The position numbers and the translations under genes are program-made. From Alphaproteobacteria bacterium (GTDB lineage: Bacteria; Pseudomonadota; Alphaproteobacteria; UBA7887): a stretch of DNA of 18,320 nt. Shown here one piece after another: positions 1-15,451 of this stretch; position 1 is the stretch's first letter; the number at the start of each line of letters is the position of its first letter. The stretch is from positions 1 to 18,320 of the forward strand of contig CBDCGL010000010.1 in the NCBI GenBank assembly GCA_965216755.1. The letters run 5' to 3'. A model generated the notes under the pieces. That model was given only the letters and a program-made list of their open reading frames with translations. It did no database searches and was not told the DNA's origin.

Positions 1-164
1 TCGCCGGACCGTAGCATTTTGACCACCTTCTCAAAAACCGGCCGCCGGGCCGATACCGCTGACAGCGTTTCGACATGAAGCTCATCGCATATGGCCTTAA
101 GGCCATCGATCTGGCGATCCGGCCTCTGTTCTTGGGTCGAGACCCTGAGGTAGCCAATCATCAT
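1..164 (-). CDS. Serine recombinase (resolvase/invertase family), 5' part only, truncated by the window edge
   Basis: Not in the ORF track. Manual translation of the minus strand from ATG at 164 gives MMIGYLRVSTQEQRPDRQIDGLKAICDELHVETLSAVSARRPVFEKVVKMLRSG, with the GYxRVST..Q...Q catalytic-serine motif and the later RP motif. Confidence 0.92.
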   Translation of the reverse strand, partial: MMIGYLRVSTQEQRPDRQIDGLKAICDELHVETLSAVSARRPVFEKVVKMLRSG

Positions 165-252
165 GCCCTGTTCGGCGCTTTGCGCAAATCTCAGCGCCCT
201 CCCCTTCCCTCGCTCCCAGTCACAAGCGATTTCGTGACGCTCTGAAGCGCCA

Positions 253-400
253 CATAATCGACCCTTTTCGTGGCAGTGGTTTCGATGTCGGCATTTTGCG
301 TTGCACAGAAACAGCGGCTCCAAATGCACCAACATCTTAAGCATTATTGTATCACAACAAATGATTGATATGGAAATTTCAACAAAAAGGGTCGATTATG
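253..400. repeat. Perfect 16-bp inverted repeat flanking a 116-bp spacer
   Basis: CATAATCGACCCTTTT (253-268) is the exact reverse complement of AAAAGGGTCGATTATG (385-400). The right arm contains the RBS-like AAGGG and the ATG at 398. Confidence 0.9.
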
Positions 401-754
401 AGCAAGGAATACAAATATCGTCGCATTAAAGACTTTGCGTATCCTATCGTTGTGCTGTCGTATCTGTGCAGCGCGTCAGCGGTGTTTGCCGAAACGCCTT
501 TCACGGCCAAGGTTTTCCTTGAGAAAATGAATTCTGATGAGCAATTCAACTACCTGATGGGCGCCATCGATGCGTTGGCCTATGCGCGGTATATGAAGGA
601 TGGCAAGCGCGAAGACGGTATGACCTGCATTGTCAATTGGTTCTTTGAGGGCACGCAAGGGCGCGTCCAAATCAATCAGGCCTTCGAAGAGTTTGGTGAC
701 TATCCGCCGGGCAACATTCTGTGGCACTTGGCTAAGAAACAGTGCGGAGAGTGA
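398..754 (+). CDS. Small exported hypothetical protein, loosely reminiscent of Rap1a-type immunity proteins
   Basis: ORF 365-754; ATG 398 preferred because AAGGG precedes it. Basic N-terminus, hydrophobic stretch and AVFA cleavage-like site, then YLMGAIDAL, an internal Cys and a C-terminal Cys. The family resemblance is inference only. Confidence 0.7.
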   Translation: MSKEYKYRRIKDFAYPIVVLSYLCSASAVFAETPFTAKVFLEKMNSDEQFNYLMGAIDALAYARYMKDGKREDGMTCIVNWFFEGTQGRVQINQAFEEFGDYPPGNILWHLAKKQCGE

Positions 755-1455
755 TGACAGGCCGGGTCTCAAGATTTGAGCTGCGTCGACGTTTCAATCG
801 AAAGGCTGATGAACAGCGGCGCCGGCAGGCGCGTGATCAGCAACGCCGAAAGAGGGAACAACGGGAGGACAAGGCGGACGCCATGTGCGACGCCTTGGTG
901 CAATTGGCCAGCTCATCTCAGCGGGCGTTCTGGGAAGAACGCATCGAACGGTTGGAAACCGCCACGGTCGCTGCTTTGCTTGACAATGACGCGCGTCTGC
1001 GCCGTGCACAACAAACACTGCGTGATCTGGAAAATCGCGCCTTCGTCCTGCCGGATGGCCGCCGTGTTTACAGAACTCAGGTGGGAGACCGTGTTTATGA
1101 TGAACAGGGCAACGCGATTCCCGCATCAGAACTCGACCCACGGGCGATTTCGCCTGAACGTCCAGACTGGAATGCACATCGGATCATTAAGGCTGAACAC
1201 AACGCCGCGCTGGCAGAACGTCAGGAACTCCTGGATTACCAGGCGAAGCTGGATCAGGCTCGCAACACGCTCGACGATAGGAATTTAACCGCGGATGCCC
1301 TCGAAGACCTTGGCGCCGACCTTGAAAGCAGCATGCCGGCGGCCGTGCGTCAGCAAATGGCTGAAATGGACGGGGCCGAGCCAAGACCGTTGCAACGCCA
1401 TCAGCCCCCTGCCCCGATCACGGTACAAATGGTGCCTCCGAACCCAAATCGCTGA
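754..1455 (+). CDS. Coiled-coil hypothetical protein with a central LPDGRRVY beta-rich insert
   Basis: ORF 742-1455; TGATG stop/start overlap at 752-756 implies translational coupling. Long charged helical segments and a Pro-rich C-terminal tail. Confidence 0.78.
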   Translation: MTGRVSRFELRRRFNRKADEQRRRQARDQQRRKREQREDKADAMCDALVQLASSSQRAFWEERIERLETATVAALLDNDARLRRAQQTLRDLENRAFVLPDGRRVYRTQVGDRVYDEQGNAIPASELDPRAISPERPDWNAHRIIKAEHNAALAERQELLDYQAKLDQARNTLDDRNLTADALEDLGADLESSMPAAVRQQMAEMDGAEPRPLQRHQPPAPITVQMVPPNPNR

Positions 1456-1498
1456 CATTTGGACATCACCTTTGGCCCAGAGGCTTGGTGACTGGGAG

Positions 1499-1555
1499 CT
1501 AATTGCTGCAATAGCCTTTCGAATAGCGAAGCGACTCGCGCGCGTGACCGGACTC
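1499..1555 (-). pseudogene. 3' fragment of a thermonuclease (SNase)-like gene split by the IS21 element
   Basis: Removing the IS and one target copy joins 4041 to 1548 in frame, giving ...MIES-GHARESLRYSKGYCSN* with the stop at 1499-1501. Confidence 0.72.
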
Positions 1556-1698
1556 TGTCAACCGGCATTGAATTGGGCCCCCCAATCGGCGTGCAAAGAG
1601 GACCCCCGTGTTGGCGTGTTTGAGGACGCCCGGAGGCGATGCGCGAAGCCATCAGGTTTGCGCAGTGCATTGCCGGAGGGCGCTTCGAGGAGGTTTTT

Positions 1699-2427
1699 TC
1701 AGGCGCGGTTTTTGAAGCGCCAGCTCTCATTGCCTGTTTCGACGATGTCGCAGTGATGTGTCAGCCGGTCAAGCAGTGCCGTCGTCATCTTTGCATCTCC
1801 GAACACGCTCGGCCATTCGCCGAAGGTCAGGTTGGTGGATACGATGATCGTCGTGCGCTCGTAGAGACGGCTGATGAGATGGAAGAGCAACTGACCGCCG
1901 GTCTGTGCAAAGGGCAGATAGCCGAGTTCATCGAGGATCAGAAAGTCCAGTCGGCACAGAAGGTCGGCCATGCGCCCTTGCCGGTCGGCGCGCGCTTCGG
2001 CGTCGAGCTTGTTGACGAGGTCGACGACATTGAAGAACCGTCCCCGCGCCCCGTCCCGAATGCAGGCGCGGGCGATGCCCACAGCGAGATGGGTTTTTCC
2101 TGTGCCGGTACCGCCGATCAGGATCAAGTTGCGCTGGTGCTGCAGGAATGCGCCGCCAGCCAGATCGCGCACCAAAGTCTCGTTGACCGGCGTCTCGTTG
2201 AAGTCGAATTCTTCGATCTCCTTGGCCAGCGGTAGCTTGGCGATGGTCATCTGATACTTGATCGAACGTGCTTGCTTTTCGCTGATCTCGGCATGAAGGA
2301 GGTCACCGATGATCTTCTGCGGTTCATGCTGGCGCTTTACAGCGCTGACGAGAATCTCGTCATAGGCGGCCTTCATGCCGTAGAGCTTGAGCTGTCCCAT
2401 CGCGTCGAGAACTTGCAGTCTTTCCAT
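1699..2427 (-). CDS. istB: IS21 helper AAA+ ATPase IstB
   Basis: Walker A GGTGTGKT, Walker [20 protein letters not shown] and SWR tail. Start placed at [10 protein letters not shown] (2427). Confidence 0.97.
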
Positions 2428-3925
2428 GGTTGGATCTCCTGAGGCTGTCGTAACGGGCACAATCGGCGGCAGGTTCACACTGAAGTCGCAGCGCTTCTGG
2501 CGTTGCGATGCTCACCGGTGGGCCGGGTTCTCTCTGCCGCGCCAGGATGTTGAGAATGACGTCGGCAGAAGACACGCCCTCGCGAAGCGCTTCGGCGCAA
2601 GCGGCCTCCACCGCCGGCAGACCGTCGGTCAGCACCGCGCCAAGGATGTCCACCATTTGCCGGTCACCGTTTGCAATGTTCCGCAGCTTCCGCCGCACCT
2701 GCTTCATGGCGGTTGGAAGCGACCAGTCCTTGAACGGTGCTCCATTGCGCAACGCACCGGGTTTGCGAGCAAGAACCGGGATGTAATGCCAAGGATCGTA
2801 GACCGTTTTGTCACGGCAGAAGACACGGGCATGGCGGCCGACAATCTGACCGCCTTGCCAGAACTCCACCTGTTCGGCATAGGCGCGTATCTCCACCGGC
2901 CGGCCAACGGCTGTGGCATTGACCGAGTAGCGGTTGCAATCAAACCGGACCAGGCAGGTCTTGGACACTGATGCCGGCACGGCGTGGAAGCCGTCGAAGG
3001 GACCGGTATAGGGGACAAGACTTGCGCGTTCGGCCTCGAACATTTCCCAGACAGTCTTGTCGCGCCTGTCCGGGTGTGGATGCGCCTTTGCCCAGGCGAT
3101 GCAGCGATCGAGCAGCCATGCGTTGAGGTCCCGGTAGGTCTTGAACCGCAGCCGTGGCGTGAAGAACCGACGACGTATGACACCGACTTGGTTCTCAACC
3201 TGTCCCTTCTCCCAACCCGAGGCCGGCGTGCAGGCCACCGGCTCGACAAGGTAATGCCCGCACATTTGCAGGAACCGGCGATTGTAGGCGCGTTCCCGGC
3301 CGACGAAGATTGCGTCGACCGCCGTCTTCATGTTGTCGTAAATGCCGCGCGCACACGCGCCCTTGAAGAAAGCGAAAGCTCGATCGTGGGCATCGAACAC
3401 CATCTCTTGCGTCTCGCGGGGGTAGGCGCGGACGAACGGCATCCGGCTATGGCAGAGCCGAACATGTGCCGCCTTCACCGTCGTGGTGACCCCGTTGATC
3501 AGGACAATCTCGTGGCTCCAGTCGAACTGATATGCTTCGCCCGGATCGAAGCTCAGCGGCACGAAGGCCGATGCAGACGCTGCGCATGTCTGCCGGATCC
3601 AGGATGCGGCATAGCGCCGAACCGCGTCGTATCCGCCTTCATAGCCAAGACCGCGGAGCTCTTCGAAAATACGAACCAGTGTTAAGCGCTCGCGCTTAGG
3701 ACGGCGCGCATTCTCCGTGAGCATGTGATCGAGCTCGTTCCGCCAGGGGCCGATCTTCGGCCTGGGCTGAACCGACCGCTCGTAAATGAATTCCGTCTTC
3801 CCGGAGCGGATCACTTTGCGGACAACCTTCCGCGAGACCTTCAGCTCCCGGCAAATCTGCTTGATCGGCTTCTGTTGTTGAAAATACGCCCGCCGGATCT
3901 TCGCGATCGTCTCCACTACCAGCAT
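2360..3925 (-). CDS. istA: IS21-family DDE transposase IstA
   Basis: N-terminal [18 protein letters not shown] and WEKGQVE motifs. Start placed at [12 protein letters not shown] (3925). Confidence 0.97.
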
Positions 3926-4040
3926 CCCAAACTCGGCCCCCGATTCGAATCGGGAGCACAATGGACCCTCGTATCAGGGAGGGGCCTTTTTGGACGCCGA
4001 TCACCCCAATACTGGGGTCCTTATTCCACGCCGATCTACA

Positions 4041-4242
4041 CGGACTCGATCATGAGGCGCCCGATATCACGACCGTCAGATAGCTCACATCGCGCGACAA
4101 TGCGTCTGTAATGGTCTGTATCTCGTTGGCGGCAGGAATGCCTCTTTCCCAAAACAAGCGCCTTGAGCGCCAACGTCGCCAAAATGGCCCACCCTACTGT
4201 TGACCAATTAAACATGGCGCATCCGAAGTATGCTGGTCCCAT
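4041..4242 (-). pseudogene. 5' fragment of the thermonuclease (SNase)-like remnant
   Basis: ATLALKALVLGKRHSCRQRDTDHYRRIVARCELSDGRDIGRLMIES matches the SNase pattern C..D.D.YGR.VA.C...DG.DI...M...G.A. The N-terminal DGDT and GIDAPE motifs were not found. Confidence 0.7.
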
Positions 4243-4887
4243 GAAGACCTAAGCTGCAATGAAGGGCGTGAAGTTGGTATTTCCTAATCCTGCTCGATAT
4301 CGCGTGATTCGCATCTGATCGGGTTTGCCACGGTCCGGCCCTCACCGGTTTAATGCACTACGGTGAGTCTTGTGGGCAAATGGTGCAGTTTGGAGCCAGC
4401 AGAGGCAGCAATTGACCTGGTTGTGGCCTAATTGGGCGTGGTCTATCGATGAGCACCCCTTGCGAGTCCGTAAAAGATCAGTGCGCGGTGCATCAGCAGC
4501 ACCGTTGGCGATGAATTGTAAGCCCCCTCCGCTGACAAGCAGATCGTCAAGAGTATCGGCCTGGAGTTTTGTTTTTAGGGAACCCCTATGCGAATCACGG
4601 CCACGCGTAGCGTGGTCATGGTTGTCTCTCGCATTCTGTTTTCAGTGTAACCCCAAAGCCGACCAAAGCGTTTCCGATAAGCGAACCTGTCCAAATTGAG
4701 CGCGAAGCGCTCCCTGCGGAAGCAGGTTGATTTGGAAAAGGTGAGCGTTCGGATAGCGTCGGGATGGCTGAAGGGGGCGCTGACCAACAATGAGGGATAA
4801 GAGTGGTTGTGGTTTTTTTTTTTTGAGAATGAGTTGGGAGATGTGTTTGCTGAGGTATGGCGTTGCGATAAGGCGCGTGGGTCGAAG

Positions 4888-4896
4888 TTATCCACA
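4888..4896 (+). promoter_or_regulatory. DnaA box in the replication origin
   Basis: Perfect TTATCCACA, followed by an AT-rich stretch and iterons. A one-mismatch copy ATATCCACA lies at 5059-5067. Confidence 0.85.
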
Positions 4897-4998
4897 GGTG
4901 TGCGTGTGTTAAGTTGTGTTAATAATAGTGTTAAGGGAATCCAGGGGGCCGGTAACACGTTGAAGTAAAAGTTGGAATCGTCACGAATTTACGAAATC

Positions 4999-5151
4999 GG
5001 TGGGTGATATCACGAATCTCGGTGGGTGATATCCGGATTTGAGTGGGTGATATCACGAATATCCACAGGATGGTGGGTGATACCACGAATAATGTTTGAC
5101 AATGGTGTGTGAAAGCACGAAAGTGACTGCATGGTGGGTGATATCACGAAA
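4999..5151 (+). repeat. Iteron array (oriV), six 19-bp direct repeats
   Basis: Consensus GGTGGGTGATATCACGAAT with copies starting at 4999, 5021, 5042, 5072, 5104 and 5133, immediately upstream of and overlapping repA. TTGACA at 5096-5101 lies between copies 4 and 5. Confidence 0.92.
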
Positions 5152-6207
5152 ACAGATCAGAGTTCACAATTTGCGCCAGATCGTCGCGTGCAACATGATC
5201 TCTTCATTTGCGACGTTGCAGACGCGGTTTTAAAAGATCTCATAGCGGAAATGGAGCATCCATTTTATTCACTATCAAAAAAACCCGAAACAACTGTGAG
5301 ACGTTACGAGCACAATGGTAATTGGATTGAAATAGTTCCAAGTGTAAAAGGATTAGCGACCATATACGATAAGGACATACTGATTTATTGCATATCGCAA
5401 ATTATGCACAAGATGAAAAATGGTGAGCCGTATGGTCAAAGAATAAAGATTAACGCTTACGATTTGCTGACATTCACCAATAAAGGCACGGGAGGGCGCG
5501 AGTATGCGGCGTTATGCGAGGGATTGGATAGGTTAGATGGTACCAGGATCCGGACGAATATTAAAACAGGCGATGAAGAGCAATTTGATACGTTTGGATT
5601 GATTGATGCCGCGACGGTGCGGCGGAAATACGGGTTGGATGGCCGTTTGATGCACTGTGAAGTAAAGCTTTCAGACTGGGTGTTTAGTGCTATCAAGGCG
5701 CAAGAGGTTTTGACGCTTCACAGGGACTATTTTCGGCTGAAGAGGCCAATAGAACGGCGTATTTACGAACTAGCCCGCAAGCATTGCGGAAAGCAACCCG
5801 AATGGCGCTGCTCCGTAGGTATCCTTCACAAAAAGTCGGGTTCAAAGGCGACGCTTAAAGAGTTTCGCCGCGCCATCCGGCGGCTCGTTGCTGATAATGA
5901 AATAGTTGCGAATGACGAGTTGGAGTTTCCTGACTATGCGGTGGAGCTGGATACAGGCGCCGATATGGTTGTCTTCAGCAACAAGGCGCTGGCGGCCAAC
6001 AAAGGTTTGTGCGCCATAGATTTGATCAGGCTTGACCCCGAAACTTACCATGATGCGAGAGAAATCGCGCAAGGTTGGGATGTTCACTACCTGGAACAAG
6101 AATGGCGCGACTGGATGGCCATGGGAAGCATGGACACCCCGGATAAACCGGACAGAGCGTTTCTAGGATTTTGCAGGAAATGGGTTGAGAGGCGGGGGCG
6201 TCCGTAA
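5131..6207 (+). CDS. repA: Plasmid replication initiator protein A (RPA family)
   Basis: DLFICDVADAVLKD, MEHPFYSLSKKP, GLATIYDKDILIY and ERRIYELARKHCG motifs typical of alphaproteobacterial RepA initiators, with adjacent iterons. Exact start codon uncertain. Confidence 0.93.
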   Translation: MVGDITKTDQSSQFAPDRRVQHDLFICDVADAVLKDLIAEMEHPFYSLSKKPETTVRRYEHNGNWIEIVPSVKGLATIYDKDILIYCISQIMHKMKNGEPYGQRIKINAYDLLTFTNKGTGGREYAALCEGLDRLDGTRIRTNIKTGDEEQFDTFGLIDAATVRRKYGLDGRLMHCEVKLSDWVFSAIKAQEVLTLHRDYFRLKRPIERRIYELARKHCGKQPEWRCSVGILHKKSGSKATLKEFRRAIRRLVADNEIVANDELEFPDYAVELDTGADMVVFSNKALAANKGLCAIDLIRLDPETYHDAREIAQGWDVHYLEQEWRDWMAMGSMDTPDKPDRAFLGFCRKWVERRGRP

Positions 6208-6256
6208 TGCAGGAACATCTTGGACGATCCGGCAAGGGTAGAAGCATTGAATAGAA

Positions 6257-6523
6257 TTACCCTTGTCCCCTGCCCTCTTCATACGCATCGAGCGCTCGGC
6301 TTAACAGACCGATAAGCCGCAGACCGTCGCGTTTGGCTATAGAACGGAATCTTGCGATTTCAGATGATGGGCCTTTGATATTTATTTGGCCTTCGGCTGG
6401 CTCACGACTTGGAAATCCGGAGGCGTGATCAATCGCGCGGCGCTGCGTGGATTCCGAACGCGCCTGCGCTCTCGGCTTGTCTATCCCCTCAAAATTTAAA
6501 GAAGCTCGCACTTGGGTCGACAT
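6257..6523 (-). CDS. Small ribbon-helix-helix protein, probable centromere-binding partner of ParA (ParG-like)
   Basis: 88 aa, coupled to parA by a TAATG overlap. Flexible N-terminus and C-terminal QINIKG...RFRSIAKRDG..LLSRALDAYE strand-helix-helix pattern. Confidence 0.78.
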   Translation of the reverse strand: MSTQVRASLNFEGIDKPRAQARSESTQRRAIDHASGFPSREPAEGQINIKGPSSEIARFRSIAKRDGLRLIGLLSRALDAYEEGRGQG

Positions 6524-7215
6524 TATGCGACAGCCTTTACATCAGATGAAGTTAGCGCTTTGAGCTTGGCCACGGTCTCAGCGGCAAACTCGTATACATT
6601 GGTGATAGCCTTGTCGGTGTTGTTGACTGCAGTTGGGTTGAGGCCACGTACACTGCCGCCGGTCGTGTAGATTGCTGAGAACGCATCACGTTCATTAATT
6701 TCGGTTGCATAGACATCGATGTGCGGATTTTCTCGAAACTGCCGTGAAATATGTCGCGCGGTCCGGGACTTTGCGACAACCCTGGTCCGCGTGAACAAGA
6801 CACTGTAGGGAATCTCTCGCCTAACTGCTCTGGCGTCCCTATGGACCTCGGCAATTACATCGAGCGCCGCGAGCGCGTCCTGCTGCTGTTCTTGCATCGG
6901 GATTATCACAAGGTCGGACTGACCAACCGCATAGCTGACCCGCCGATCGGCGACCCCTTCTAAATCAATAATGACGAATGGATCGGTGCTCGCCGCGTCG
7001 TCGATCTGATCAAGAATCGTTTTTTCGGAATCGTTGGTTAGAACCGTGAGCCTTCCTGGTTTTCCAGGCAAGGCTGACCAAGTCGTAATGGGATGACGCG
7101 GATCGGCATCAATAATGCTTACGTCTGCTTCTTCCGCCAGTTCACATGCAAGGAGCAAAGCGCTTGTGGTTTTCCCGGAGCCTCCTTTTGAATTTGCAAA
7201 TGCGATGATGGGCAT
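6523..7215 (-). CDS. parA: ParA-family Walker ATPase (short, type Ib-like)
   Basis: Deviant Walker A KGGSGKTT, IIDADP and VIIDLEG. Start placed at MPIIAFAN (7215); no N-terminal HTH. Confidence 0.95.
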   Translation of the reverse strand: MPIIAFANSKGGSGKTTSALLLACELAEEADVSIIDADPRHPITTWSALPGKPGRLTVLTNDSEKTILDQIDDAASTDPFVIIDLEGVADRRVSYAVGQSDLVIIPMQEQQQDALAALDVIAEVHRDARAVRREIPYSVLFTRTRVVAKSRTARHISRQFRENPHIDVYATEINERDAFSAIYTTGGSVRGLNPTAVNNTDKAITNVYEFAAETVAKLKALTSSDVKAVA

Positions 7216-13717: not shown

Positions 13718-14995
13718 TTAGCAAGCATCGTCCGGTTCTGCCTCGTAGAAAAGGCCGTCATAGGCAAAGGCGCTCTTGATCGCCTCGCAATCAGCATCAC
13801 TGACACCGGCGCGGCGCATGGTCGAACGCCAGTGCTCACGGATTGTAGTGGTGATTCGCGCGAATATGGCTTCGGCGTCTTCTTTGCTTAGCAAGAAGCG
13901 GCCATGCGCGCTGAGCATGTTTATCTTGTTGGCATAGCGGCCATAGCGTCCACACGCCATGGCCAGATCGCGCCGCTCGATGGCGATCGTGGGCGTCGGG
14001 GTCAGATCGAAAGCGGGGCTCAACCGCCAGGCACGCGTTTTGGCAATGACCGCATGGTTGCGTGGGTGATCATCGATATTGGAGACGGCCGCGTTAAAGC
14101 AGATACGTGCAAACAGTTCCCTGAGATCGGCTTCGGGATCGGCGCTGACGCGGCGGATTTCATCGGCGAGCAGAAGATAGGACCAGGTCTCGCGCTCATT
14201 CGGGCTGTCTGCGGTTTGCAGCAACGTCAGCGCGCTGACCATGCGGTGTCGGCGGTAGCCGTTTTCCGCGGCATCGCGATCAAAGCGGCGAACCAGTAAC
14301 ACATCACGGCCGCCGACGGTCTCGATGCGGCTGTCGGCGGCATTAAGACCGCAGTCTTTGGCGAGCGTTAGCATCGCGTGTTCGACACGCGGATGACTCC
14401 AGCGATCATCATTGCGGTTGAACTTTGCCAGCCACAGACCGTGGTCGTCCTGCACCACCGCCTTGGGACGTGCACCACCCATCGATGTGCCAAGCAGAAG
14501 CAGTTCTTGTGCTTGGGCAGCTGCCTCGCCGGCGCGATCTGGTTGGTCAGCAATGATGGCATCCGCCGCGCGCTGGAGCTTATCAAGGTCGAGCGTGCGG
14601 TTGAATTTTCTTTGCGGGGCAGGGGGCGCGACACCGAGACCGAAGCCGAGCGCGCCGGCGCGGTCGTCCGGACCTTTCATCAGGTAGTCGAATTCTTCCA
14701 ACTCTGCGAACCCGGCATGTTTCTCGATGACCCGCCGTCCCCAGAAATCAGGCATCGCATCACGGATCGCCCCGAAGAAGCCATCCATGCGCGCCGTCTC
14801 GTAGACCTGGTTCGATAGGCGCAGTTCAACCGGATCGAGTTCGACCGCATCGGCCCGCTCCCGGTAGCGGCGCCCATAAACGAATGTGCCGACAAAGCCG
14901 GGGCTGACCGACTCCAGCCGGAACCGTCCGGCGGTCACGAATTCCGTAGCGCCGGGCGGCACGATATAGACGTAGCATTCGCGCTCAGAAGTCAT
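13718..14995 (-). CDS. hipA: HipA-family Ser/Thr kinase toxin
   Basis: N-terminal coupling subdomain (FVYGRRY...LDP...FGAIRDAMPDFWG), P-loop GTSMGGARPK, RRFDR, catalytic NIDDHPRNH and LSPAFDL. Confidence 0.93.
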   Translation of the reverse strand: MTSERECYVYIVPPGATEFVTAGRFRLESVSPGFVGTFVYGRRYRERADAVELDPVELRLSNQVYETARMDGFFGAIRDAMPDFWGRRVIEKHAGFAELEEFDYLMKGPDDRAGALGFGLGVAPPAPQRKFNRTLDLDKLQRAADAIIADQPDRAGEAAAQAQELLLLGTSMGGARPKAVVQDDHGLWLAKFNRNDDRWSHPRVEHAMLTLAKDCGLNAADSRIETVGGRDVLLVRRFDRDAAENGYRRHRMVSALTLLQTADSPNERETWSYLLLADEIRRVSADPEADLRELFARICFNAAVSNIDDHPRNHAVIAKTRAWRLSPAFDLTPTPTIAIERRDLAMACGRYGRYANKINMLSAHGRFLLSKEDAEAIFARITTTIREHWRSTMRRAGVSDADCEAIKSAFAYDGLFYEAEPDDAC

Positions 14996-15326
14996 CGCTC
15001 AATGTCCTTGGCGGTCCGGCCGTCTTCGGGCTGCGCGCGCGTTCCAGTGTCTTTCCTTCTTCGTCTCGGTCCGGGTCCGCGACCGCACGCATATCGCCCA
15101 GCAATCCCATGGCCCACAAAGCGCCGATATAGGCGGCGATACCGGTGCTCGGCTTGCCATGCTCAATGTCGGCCACGACGAAGCGCGAAACCCCGACACG
15201 CCGGGCCAATTCGTCCTGCGAGAGCTTCCGCCGTATTCTGGCCCTGCGGATGTTGCGGCCCAGCCGCTCCAGGGAGTCCTGGACGGCGGCGGGCGGGGCC
15301 TTGCTGATCTTGCTTGTGCGGGGCAT
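14985..15326 (-). CDS. XRE-family HTH protein, HipB-like antitoxin
   Basis: LGRNIRRARIRRKLSQDELARRVGVSRFVVADIEHGKP HTH; its stop overlaps the hipA start by 11 nt. Confidence 0.9.
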   Translation of the reverse strand: MPRTSKISKAPPAAVQDSLERLGRNIRRARIRRKLSQDELARRVGVSRFVVADIEHGKPSTGIAAYIGALWAMGLLGDMRAVADPDRDEEGKTLERARSPKTAGPPRTLSDDF

Positions 15327-15340
15327 GTTGTTTCTAATCT

Positions 15341-15451
15341 ACATTTATCAATCAAATATTGCTTCAAAACATCATTGCCTGGAATTCATCTGCCTGTCAA
15401 GCGCGACGCGCGAATTTTGTTGGCTTTAATTTACATATACGACTTAAATGT
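15341..15451. promoter_or_regulatory. Two candidate operators upstream of the HTH-hipA operon
   Basis: ACATTTA-N5-CAAATAT (15341-15359) and ACATATA-N5-TAAATGT (15433-15451) flank a minus-strand TTGACA at 15395-15400. Confidence 0.6.

Follow-up and report, generated by a model that had tools for sequence, protein, structure and literature searches.

The recombinase gene, its divergent operon and their plasmid backbone

The stretch of DNA we analysed (the window) is the whole of an 18,320-bp contig, C10, from an alphaproteobacterial genome of ~5.0 Mb assembled into 11 contigs, one of 4.85 Mb and ten of 4–26 kb. C10 carries a plasmid backbone, with genes for RepA (RPA family), ParA, a MobA relaxase and a TraG coupling protein, and its left end is occupied by the 5' part of a small serine recombinase gene (positions 1–164, minus strand, 54 codons) which is truncated by the start of the contig. 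Divergent from this is an operon on the plus strand whose first gene, orf118 (398–754), encodes a small protein which begins with a signal-peptide-like segment and has two invariant cysteines, and whose second (742–1455) encodes a charged, unnamed protein with a likely ATG at 754 overlapping the orf118 stop. The second gene has no Pfam family, and a homologue of it is found in the same position in a related locus, L007.

A paralogous copy of the backbone is found on a second contig, C5 (locus L004), in which C5:13425–17907 corresponds to window positions 1–6799 with ~4.3 kb shared at 93–95% identity. The recombinase, orf118, orf237, RepA and ParA are common to both copies, and the first 214 nt of C10 are identical in C5. 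The further genes of C10 include a HipA-like kinase gene with a small upstream ORF (13718–15367), both on the minus strand and possibly a toxin–antitoxin pair, two ORFs with RTX calcium-binding repeats which end the contig (17549–18318), and an IS21-type element (1555–4040) with istA (2360–3961) and istB (1699–2478) on the minus strand. This element is 100% identical to three chromosomal copies and is absent from the C5 backbone, where the stretch matching its position holds an SNase-like gene; C5 also carries a second serine recombinase gene (at 4630–5187, 35% identical).

The full-length recombinase (192 aa) was taken from C5:13010–13588, which is the sole complete assembled copy. It has Pfam Resolvase (E 6.4e-38) and HTH_7 domains, and the closest solved structure is that of the Gin invertase (E 9.7e-36, 126 bits), with the gamma-delta resolvase matched at E 1.4e-16 (64 bits) and gamma-delta/Tn3 resolvases generally at E 1e-16 to 1e-15. 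None of the NCBIfam models reached its cut-off, and the protein falls well outside the Mpi family (NF009949; 50 bits against a cut-off of 272). These matches place the protein among the small serine recombinases that combine an N-terminal catalytic domain with a helix-turn-helix at the C-terminus, and its nearest known relatives appear to be the invertases.

Further analysis of orf118 identified no Pfam or NCBIfam family, but the protein is a member of an unnamed family for which 699 cluster representatives are retrieved at E ≤ 0.001. Its homologues occur in seven of the two-site loci described below and adjoin a relative of P0004 in five of the six genomes of the class having one, and the orf118 family travels with this recombinase clade. 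A word-index search returned only the paralogue of orf118, and the 22 further genomes searched from the same family and order gave no homologue. The AlphaFold2 model of the protein has five helices after the leader (pLDDT 82.6) and retrieved nothing from Foldseek at E ≤ 0.001. Structural matches found by VIA-align to HdeA (Z 7.0), Rap1a (3zfi, Z 6.5) and Tai4 (6ije, Z 5.2) were set aside as too low for helical bundles, and the Pfam Rap1a model did not match orf118 even at E ≤ 10. It should be noted that orf118 has a language-model score of 0.90 to a cluster with Pfam Rap1a in 15% of its members, and these leads, which are weak and convergent, might hint at Rap1a/Tai4-type periplasmic immunity proteins.

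An inverted repeat between the two divergent genes

The recombinase gene and orf118 are separated by a region containing an inverted repeat with arms of 19 nt at 253–271 and 382–400 which are 95% complementary (one mismatch) with 110 nt between them. The original prediction had described an exact 16-bp repeat at 253–268 and 385–400 with a 116-nt spacer, a right arm including the start of the gene at 398, and a recombinase gene starting 89 bp from the left arm, and all three descriptions are accurate: the repeat search returned the exact core at these positions, the right arm spans an AAGGG stretch as well as the ATG at 398, and the minus-strand recombinase frame has its start at 164. This is the sole exact inverted repeat of at least 12 nt with a 20–150-nt loop in the 18,320-bp window, and an exact 16-mer repeat with such a loop was obtained in one of 400 simulated windows (first-order Markov). 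Neither arm is altered in the C5 copy, whose spacer differs by three substitutions (287, 302 and 319) and lies in the same orientation as that of C10.

A further 76 exact inverted repeats of at least 16 nt with 20–150-nt loops are found on the chromosome of the same genome, and repeats of this kind might arise by chance or represent the ends of a miniature transposable element. We consider such an origin extremely improbable for the repeat in the window, given how rarely simulation produced it, the lack of a visible flanking direct repeat and the match of both arms to a motif conserved in other genomes (see below). The 16-mer arm is also confined to the C5 and C10 copies within the genome, and this restriction to two paralogous copies contradicts a miniature transposon.

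The repeat arms lie within two 26-bp sites

We collected loci encoding relatives of the recombinase or of orf118, and iterated a 26-column matrix seeded with the right arm of the window until it settled on a pair of sites in each of nine loci. When the matrix was built without the window and then scored over all 18,320 bp, positions 379–404 ranked first (20.6 bits) and 249–274 second (20.3 bits), with the next-best position at 10.4 bits, and the same leave-one-out procedure recovered both sites in seven of the nine loci. Across the 5.0-Mb genome, the C10 sites and their C5 counterparts are the four best matches and form the only pairs 60–200 bp apart.

Each site consists of two 12-bp half-sites flanking a central dinucleotide (the core), which is the geometry of the hix sites. 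The proximal site (249–274) holds the left arm of the repeat and has the core AC at 261–262, while the distal site (379–404) holds the right arm, has the core GT at 391–392, and carries the Shine–Dalgarno-like stretch and start codon of orf118 (398–400, at offset 19 in the site). The two sites are inverted with respect to each other and 130 bp apart from centre to centre, and lie in the promoter region that immediately precedes the recombinase gene, the centre of the proximal site being 98 bp from the recombinase start. The window contains exactly four half-sites of at least 6 bits, which make up the two full sites, and no third full site was found in it above background. We note that hix-type sites are described as 26 bp long with a 2-bp staggered cut at the centre (PMC4817059). 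It is very probable that the arms are recombinase sites, and binding of the recombinase to both is predicted; that the two sites interact with each other is likely, if less assured. Literature searches, with subscription journals outside their coverage, returned no description of this family of 26-bp sites.

Reading the region by eye, we also noticed that the stretch from the proximal site to the recombinase gene contains a small dyad (219–238; 5-bp arms with a 10-bp gap), which has the third-ranked matrix score, at background level, and holds the region's only extra half-site-like word (one compared with 0.59 expected); a three-subsite layout as in res was not found in the window. The dyad shares a 12-mer with the spacers of two other loci, L008 and L041, and was rejected as a conserved accessory site as its matches in other loci were at the level of shuffled controls.

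Paired sites recur in related loci and have matching cores

In each of 37 related loci, we called the two sites 60–200 bp apart whose weaker member scored highest, and regarded the pair as credible when both sites scored at least 7 bits at this distance. A credible two-site layout was found in 16 of the 37 loci, using a matrix that had been trained on some of the very sites called with it. In 14 of these (the exceptions being L038 and L063) the two sites share one central dinucleotide when read in the inverted sense, compared with four of the 21 loci without a credible pair. Eight of the 14 matches have asymmetric cores (GT, GA, AA and AG types), and in no case do asymmetric cores match in the direct sense; the other six are AT/AT, and being palindromic are uninformative on orientation. 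For the 14 loci that were called first, 13 of which match, permutation gave a null mean of 2.42 with none of 10,000 permutations reaching 13, though this overstates independence as the loci are related by descent.

The covariation is concentrated at the centre of the site, with positions 13 (matching in 14/14 loci; null 4.4) and 14 (13/14; null 7.7) in excess. Positions 17, 3 and 24 are also above the permutation null, the last two matching in the direct sense as well, and the remaining variable positions are at null level in these 14 loci. Covariation at positions 3 and 24 is as might be expected for a locus-specific protein contact. Sister loci in the recombinase tree have different cores which are nonetheless matched within each locus, as seen in the window (GT), L007 (GA) and L040 (AA), and again in L048 (GT) and L047 (AG).

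Matching cores in the inverted sense are predicted by recombination between the two sites because a core mismatch blocks the rejoining of strands, and a single core change in one hix site is reported to block ligation in the inverted orientation (PMC4817059). Such matching is not expected of a repression loop, an accessory site or an RNA stem, and our best reading of the paired sites in the window is therefore an invertible promoter segment. Core-dinucleotide covariation of this kind may also offer a means of recognising partner recombination sites from sequence, without the need for read data.

The original prediction had also raised an mRNA leader in which a transcript starting to the left of 253 would allow the left arm to pair with the right arm, so hiding the ribosome-binding site and AUG of orf118. 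Both the Shine–Dalgarno-like stretch and the AUG do lie in the right arm, and positions 245–410 fold with the arms paired at –48.4 kcal/mol (z –4.0), which was equalled by none of 200 shuffles. Against this, once the two central positions, the motif-fixed ones and positions 3, 17 and 24 are set aside, the arm positions in the 14 loci match in the inverted sense no more often than by chance, with matches at positions 3 and 24 equally frequent in the direct sense, and there is no plus-strand promoter-like site upstream of 253 in our promoter scan. Furthermore, the distal site lies ~75 nt or more from the start of the cargo gene in L008 and L041, and related recombinase genes have a lone copy of the site upstream of them. 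Without stem-wide compensatory changes and with single-copy sites elsewhere, the leader is not supported, and we regard an RNA switch as very improbable.

The centre-to-centre distances in the 16 two-site loci are 76, 96, 107, 117, 119, 127 (three loci), 128 (four loci), 129 (two loci), 130 and 140 bp. These have a resultant length of 0.86 at a period of 10.5 bp, which can be taken as supportive only as many of the loci are related. The pattern suggests that the sites are aligned on the same face of the helix, and this would fit looping or synapsis alike.

Relatives with a single site and the case for a static region

Recombinase relatives at 38–49% identity mostly have one strongly palindromic site 100–144 bp upstream of the gene start, and this single-site group includes L046, L049, L051, L043, L057, L067 and eight more, all with Gin-like genes in other Alphaproteobacteria. 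The single site is followed by repeated half-site-like words (12 compared with 2.6 expected in 14 loci) which are also evident by eye, and the upstream region can be read as a res-like region with three parts; the literature we searched holds no description of such a region at the loci of Gin-like recombinases. In the window and its closest relatives, which have two sites, extra half-site words are not enriched (9 compared with 6.5 expected in 14 loci). In the recombinase tree, 13 of the 15 rows labelled single-site fall in one 17-row clade (support 98/89) which includes no two-site rows.

This kinship raises the possibility of a static operator pair or an atypical res in the window, where the recombinase would loop the spacer and repress both divergent promoters as a resolvase does at res, one of the sites would serve as the crossover for plasmid multimer resolution, and the segment would never be inverted. 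The setting is appropriate, as the window carries plasmid backbone genes for RepA, ParA, MobA relaxase and TraG (to which C5 adds the SNase-like gene), and the small serine recombinases of the ParA–MRS and CinH–RS2 systems, with sites of ~106 bp or longer, resolve plasmids (PMC5698047). Close relatives have the single palindromic site and extra half-sites described above, the distal site covers the likely transcript start as well as the orf118 start codon, and helically phased spacing suits a repression loop equally with a synapse. Yet core identity, which neither a loop nor an accessory site requires, is found in 14 of the 16 loci with paired sites, and whenever asymmetric cores match they do so in the inverted orientation. 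The two sites also agree in their 26-bp geometry, two-site loci show no enrichment of accessory half-sites, and identical crossover-competent inverted sites would invert unless this were prevented. We consider a static region the main alternative, though a less probable one, and should it be correct, the region would be an ordinary autoregulatory operator pair for the recombinase. A simpler form of this idea, that the arms are just two res subsites, stands in so far as the arms are recombinase sites, and falls short in that there are no extra accessory half-sites and both sites have the geometry of a crossover site.

Promoter-like elements and the orientation of the spacer

The 104-bp spacer between the two sites (275–378) has an AT-rich half adjoining the distal site (AT content 0.71 compared with 0.50 in the other half), in agreement with the AT-rich right side noted originally. 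A scan of positions 1–900 listed no promoter site, and the weak promoter-like pair proposed for the plus strand, TTGTAT (347–352) and TATGGA (369–374) with 16 nt between them, is present but lies below the threshold of the scan. By crude scoring, this pair falls behind the best promoter-like element of the spacer, an extended –10 on the minus strand (TG at 354–353, hexamer at 351–346) directed towards the recombinase gene. In L008, the same crude scoring gives a strong promoter-like element beside the proximal site directed towards the cargo gene, and the different directions in L008 and the window could represent two states of one kind of switch. The IHF core consensus is matched just once in the 18,320 bp (0.32 expected per window), within the spacer at 358–370 on the minus strand; this match was dismissed as a conserved bend as the consensus is found in only two of 14 spacers, and at differing places.

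No inverted copy of the segment was seen in C5, C10 or low-depth public contigs. The latter are Logan contigs from three runs of one study, which at a depth of ~2–4 have no power to detect a minority orientation, and include one 1,534-nt contig from run X1 (depth ~3) spanning positions 1–696, which covers both arms along with the spacer, oriented as in the assembly, in the C5-like version and without joints. No run listed as containing the region is recorded as RNA. Searching PLSDB with the DNA of the window region gave no match, while L040 matched only itself and L008 matched one relative with 77% identity (L041) which shares its orientation. Relatives of G132 yielded two more loci, neither of them a close orthologue with which orientation could be compared. 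Alignments of spacers between loci gave no score of at least 30 in either orientation, and past inversions could not be traced by this approach.

In 12 of 14 loci it is the half of the spacer facing the cargo gene that is AT-rich, and from this shared polarity it follows that spacer orientation in the assemblies is not random. Such a bias would fit a static region, for which the single orientation of every copy seen is a further argument, or a strongly biased switch alike.

A proposed invertible promoter segment

The explanation we prefer is that the two inverted crossover-type sites allow the neighbouring Gin-like recombinase to invert positions 263–390 as an invertible promoter segment, a reading which we hold to be about evenly poised given the sequences available. 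Recombinase dimers at 249–274 and 379–404 would meet by looping out the 104-bp spacer, and cuts at 261–262 and 391–392 followed by strand exchange would leave 263–390 inverted. With identical arms, inversion would leave the start codon of orf118 and its ribosome-binding stretch as they are, and the two states would differ only in the direction of the promoter. In the assembled state the best promoter-like element faces the recombinase gene, and in the inverted state it would face orf118; that inversion in this way toggles a promoter between the two genes is a possibility we advance with more reserve than inversion itself. The bound sites would probably double as operators for both genes. Of the Hin/Gin-type invertible promoter suggested originally, the Gin-like protein, the inverted 26-bp sites and the covarying cores have been substantiated, whereas an inverted copy has not been seen.

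Hin and Gin invert segments of 1–4 kb, and the 130-bp segment here is far below this size. In other respects the resemblance to Hin/hix, Gin/gix, Cin and Pin is close, with a small serine recombinase that has a C-terminal helix-turn-helix and is closest to Gin, and two inverted 26-bp sites beside the recombinase gene with identical central two bases, the matching of which Hin-type systems require to rejoin strands (PMC4817059). Hin is also reported to require a 60-bp enhancer, according to the title of reference 48 of the same paper. The proposed inversion, which is deduced from sequence, differs from that by Fis-dependent invertases in having no room for an enhancer in the 104-bp spacer and no Fis-sized HTH_8 protein in the genome, where all six HTH_8 matches are in frames of 467–510 aa. 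Any inversion would on these grounds proceed by a Fis-independent route, and an unrelated bending protein might be involved.

In size, the segment is more like the invertons identified by PhaseFinder, more than 75% of which are under 300 bases (PMC11602134), and short promoters are flipped by a serine recombinase in Bacteroides (bioRxiv 10.1101/2022.10.31.514637). The Mpi system and these invertons share with our locus a short segment bounded by inverted repeats and a small serine recombinase, though the promoter here is a candidate only. Differences include the low score of our protein against the Mpi model (given above) and the one target locus next to its own gene, where Mpi has many distant ones. 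Unlike the invertons of Bacteroides, the segment is found on an alphaproteobacterial plasmid and has the start codon of the controlled gene within a site. The resemblance to Tn3/gamma-delta res, ParA–MRS and CinH–RS2 is in the location of the sites, in a divergent promoter region directly upstream of a recombinase gene on a plasmid, and for Tn3/gamma-delta res in the existence of recombinase relatives with a res-like three-part site. Here, in contrast, there are only two sites, which are inverted and have crossover geometry and matched cores, and accessory half-sites are not enriched; the 130-bp spacing moreover exceeds the entire 114-bp Tn3 res with its three dimer sites (PMC2602789).

Serine invertases and short invertons are already known, and what is new within the literature we searched is the layout, the kinship with res-type regions and the embedded start codon. 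A more speculative and somewhat doubtful extension is that one clade of alphaproteobacterial serine recombinases, related to ordinary resolvases that use a three-part res, has swapped the accessory sites of res for a second inverted crossover site, giving a self-contained toggle of ~130 bp varying in steps of ~11 bp in which one promoter would alternately drive the recombinase gene or the gene for a conserved small periplasmic protein whose ribosome-binding stretch and start codon are provided by the site. If inversion is confirmed, this would be among the smallest serine-recombinase switches, free of a Fis enhancer and carried by environmental alphaproteobacterial plasmid backbones; a single protein clade would then display a clear succession of steps by which an inversion switch evolved from res-type resolution sites, and the orf118 family would be a candidate phase-variable periplasmic factor.

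Start codons within the sites

The position of the orf118 start codon in the window is not an isolated case, as an ATG-started ORF of at least 50 aa begins at offset 19–20 inside the distal site in six of 15 loci, with three more starting at GTG or TTG. With ORFs beginning inside it, the distal site doubles as a translation start region in these loci. One locus from the metagenome scan, L033, is a decayed copy of the module in which the recombinase lacks ~43 residues at its N-terminus and the orf118 homologue ~26, and the entire intergenic region including both sites has been deleted (L033 1–1200). We also noted by eye an ATG within the proximal site of L040 (2434–2500) that is in frame with the recombinase gene, and in this locus the recombinase might itself start inside a site.
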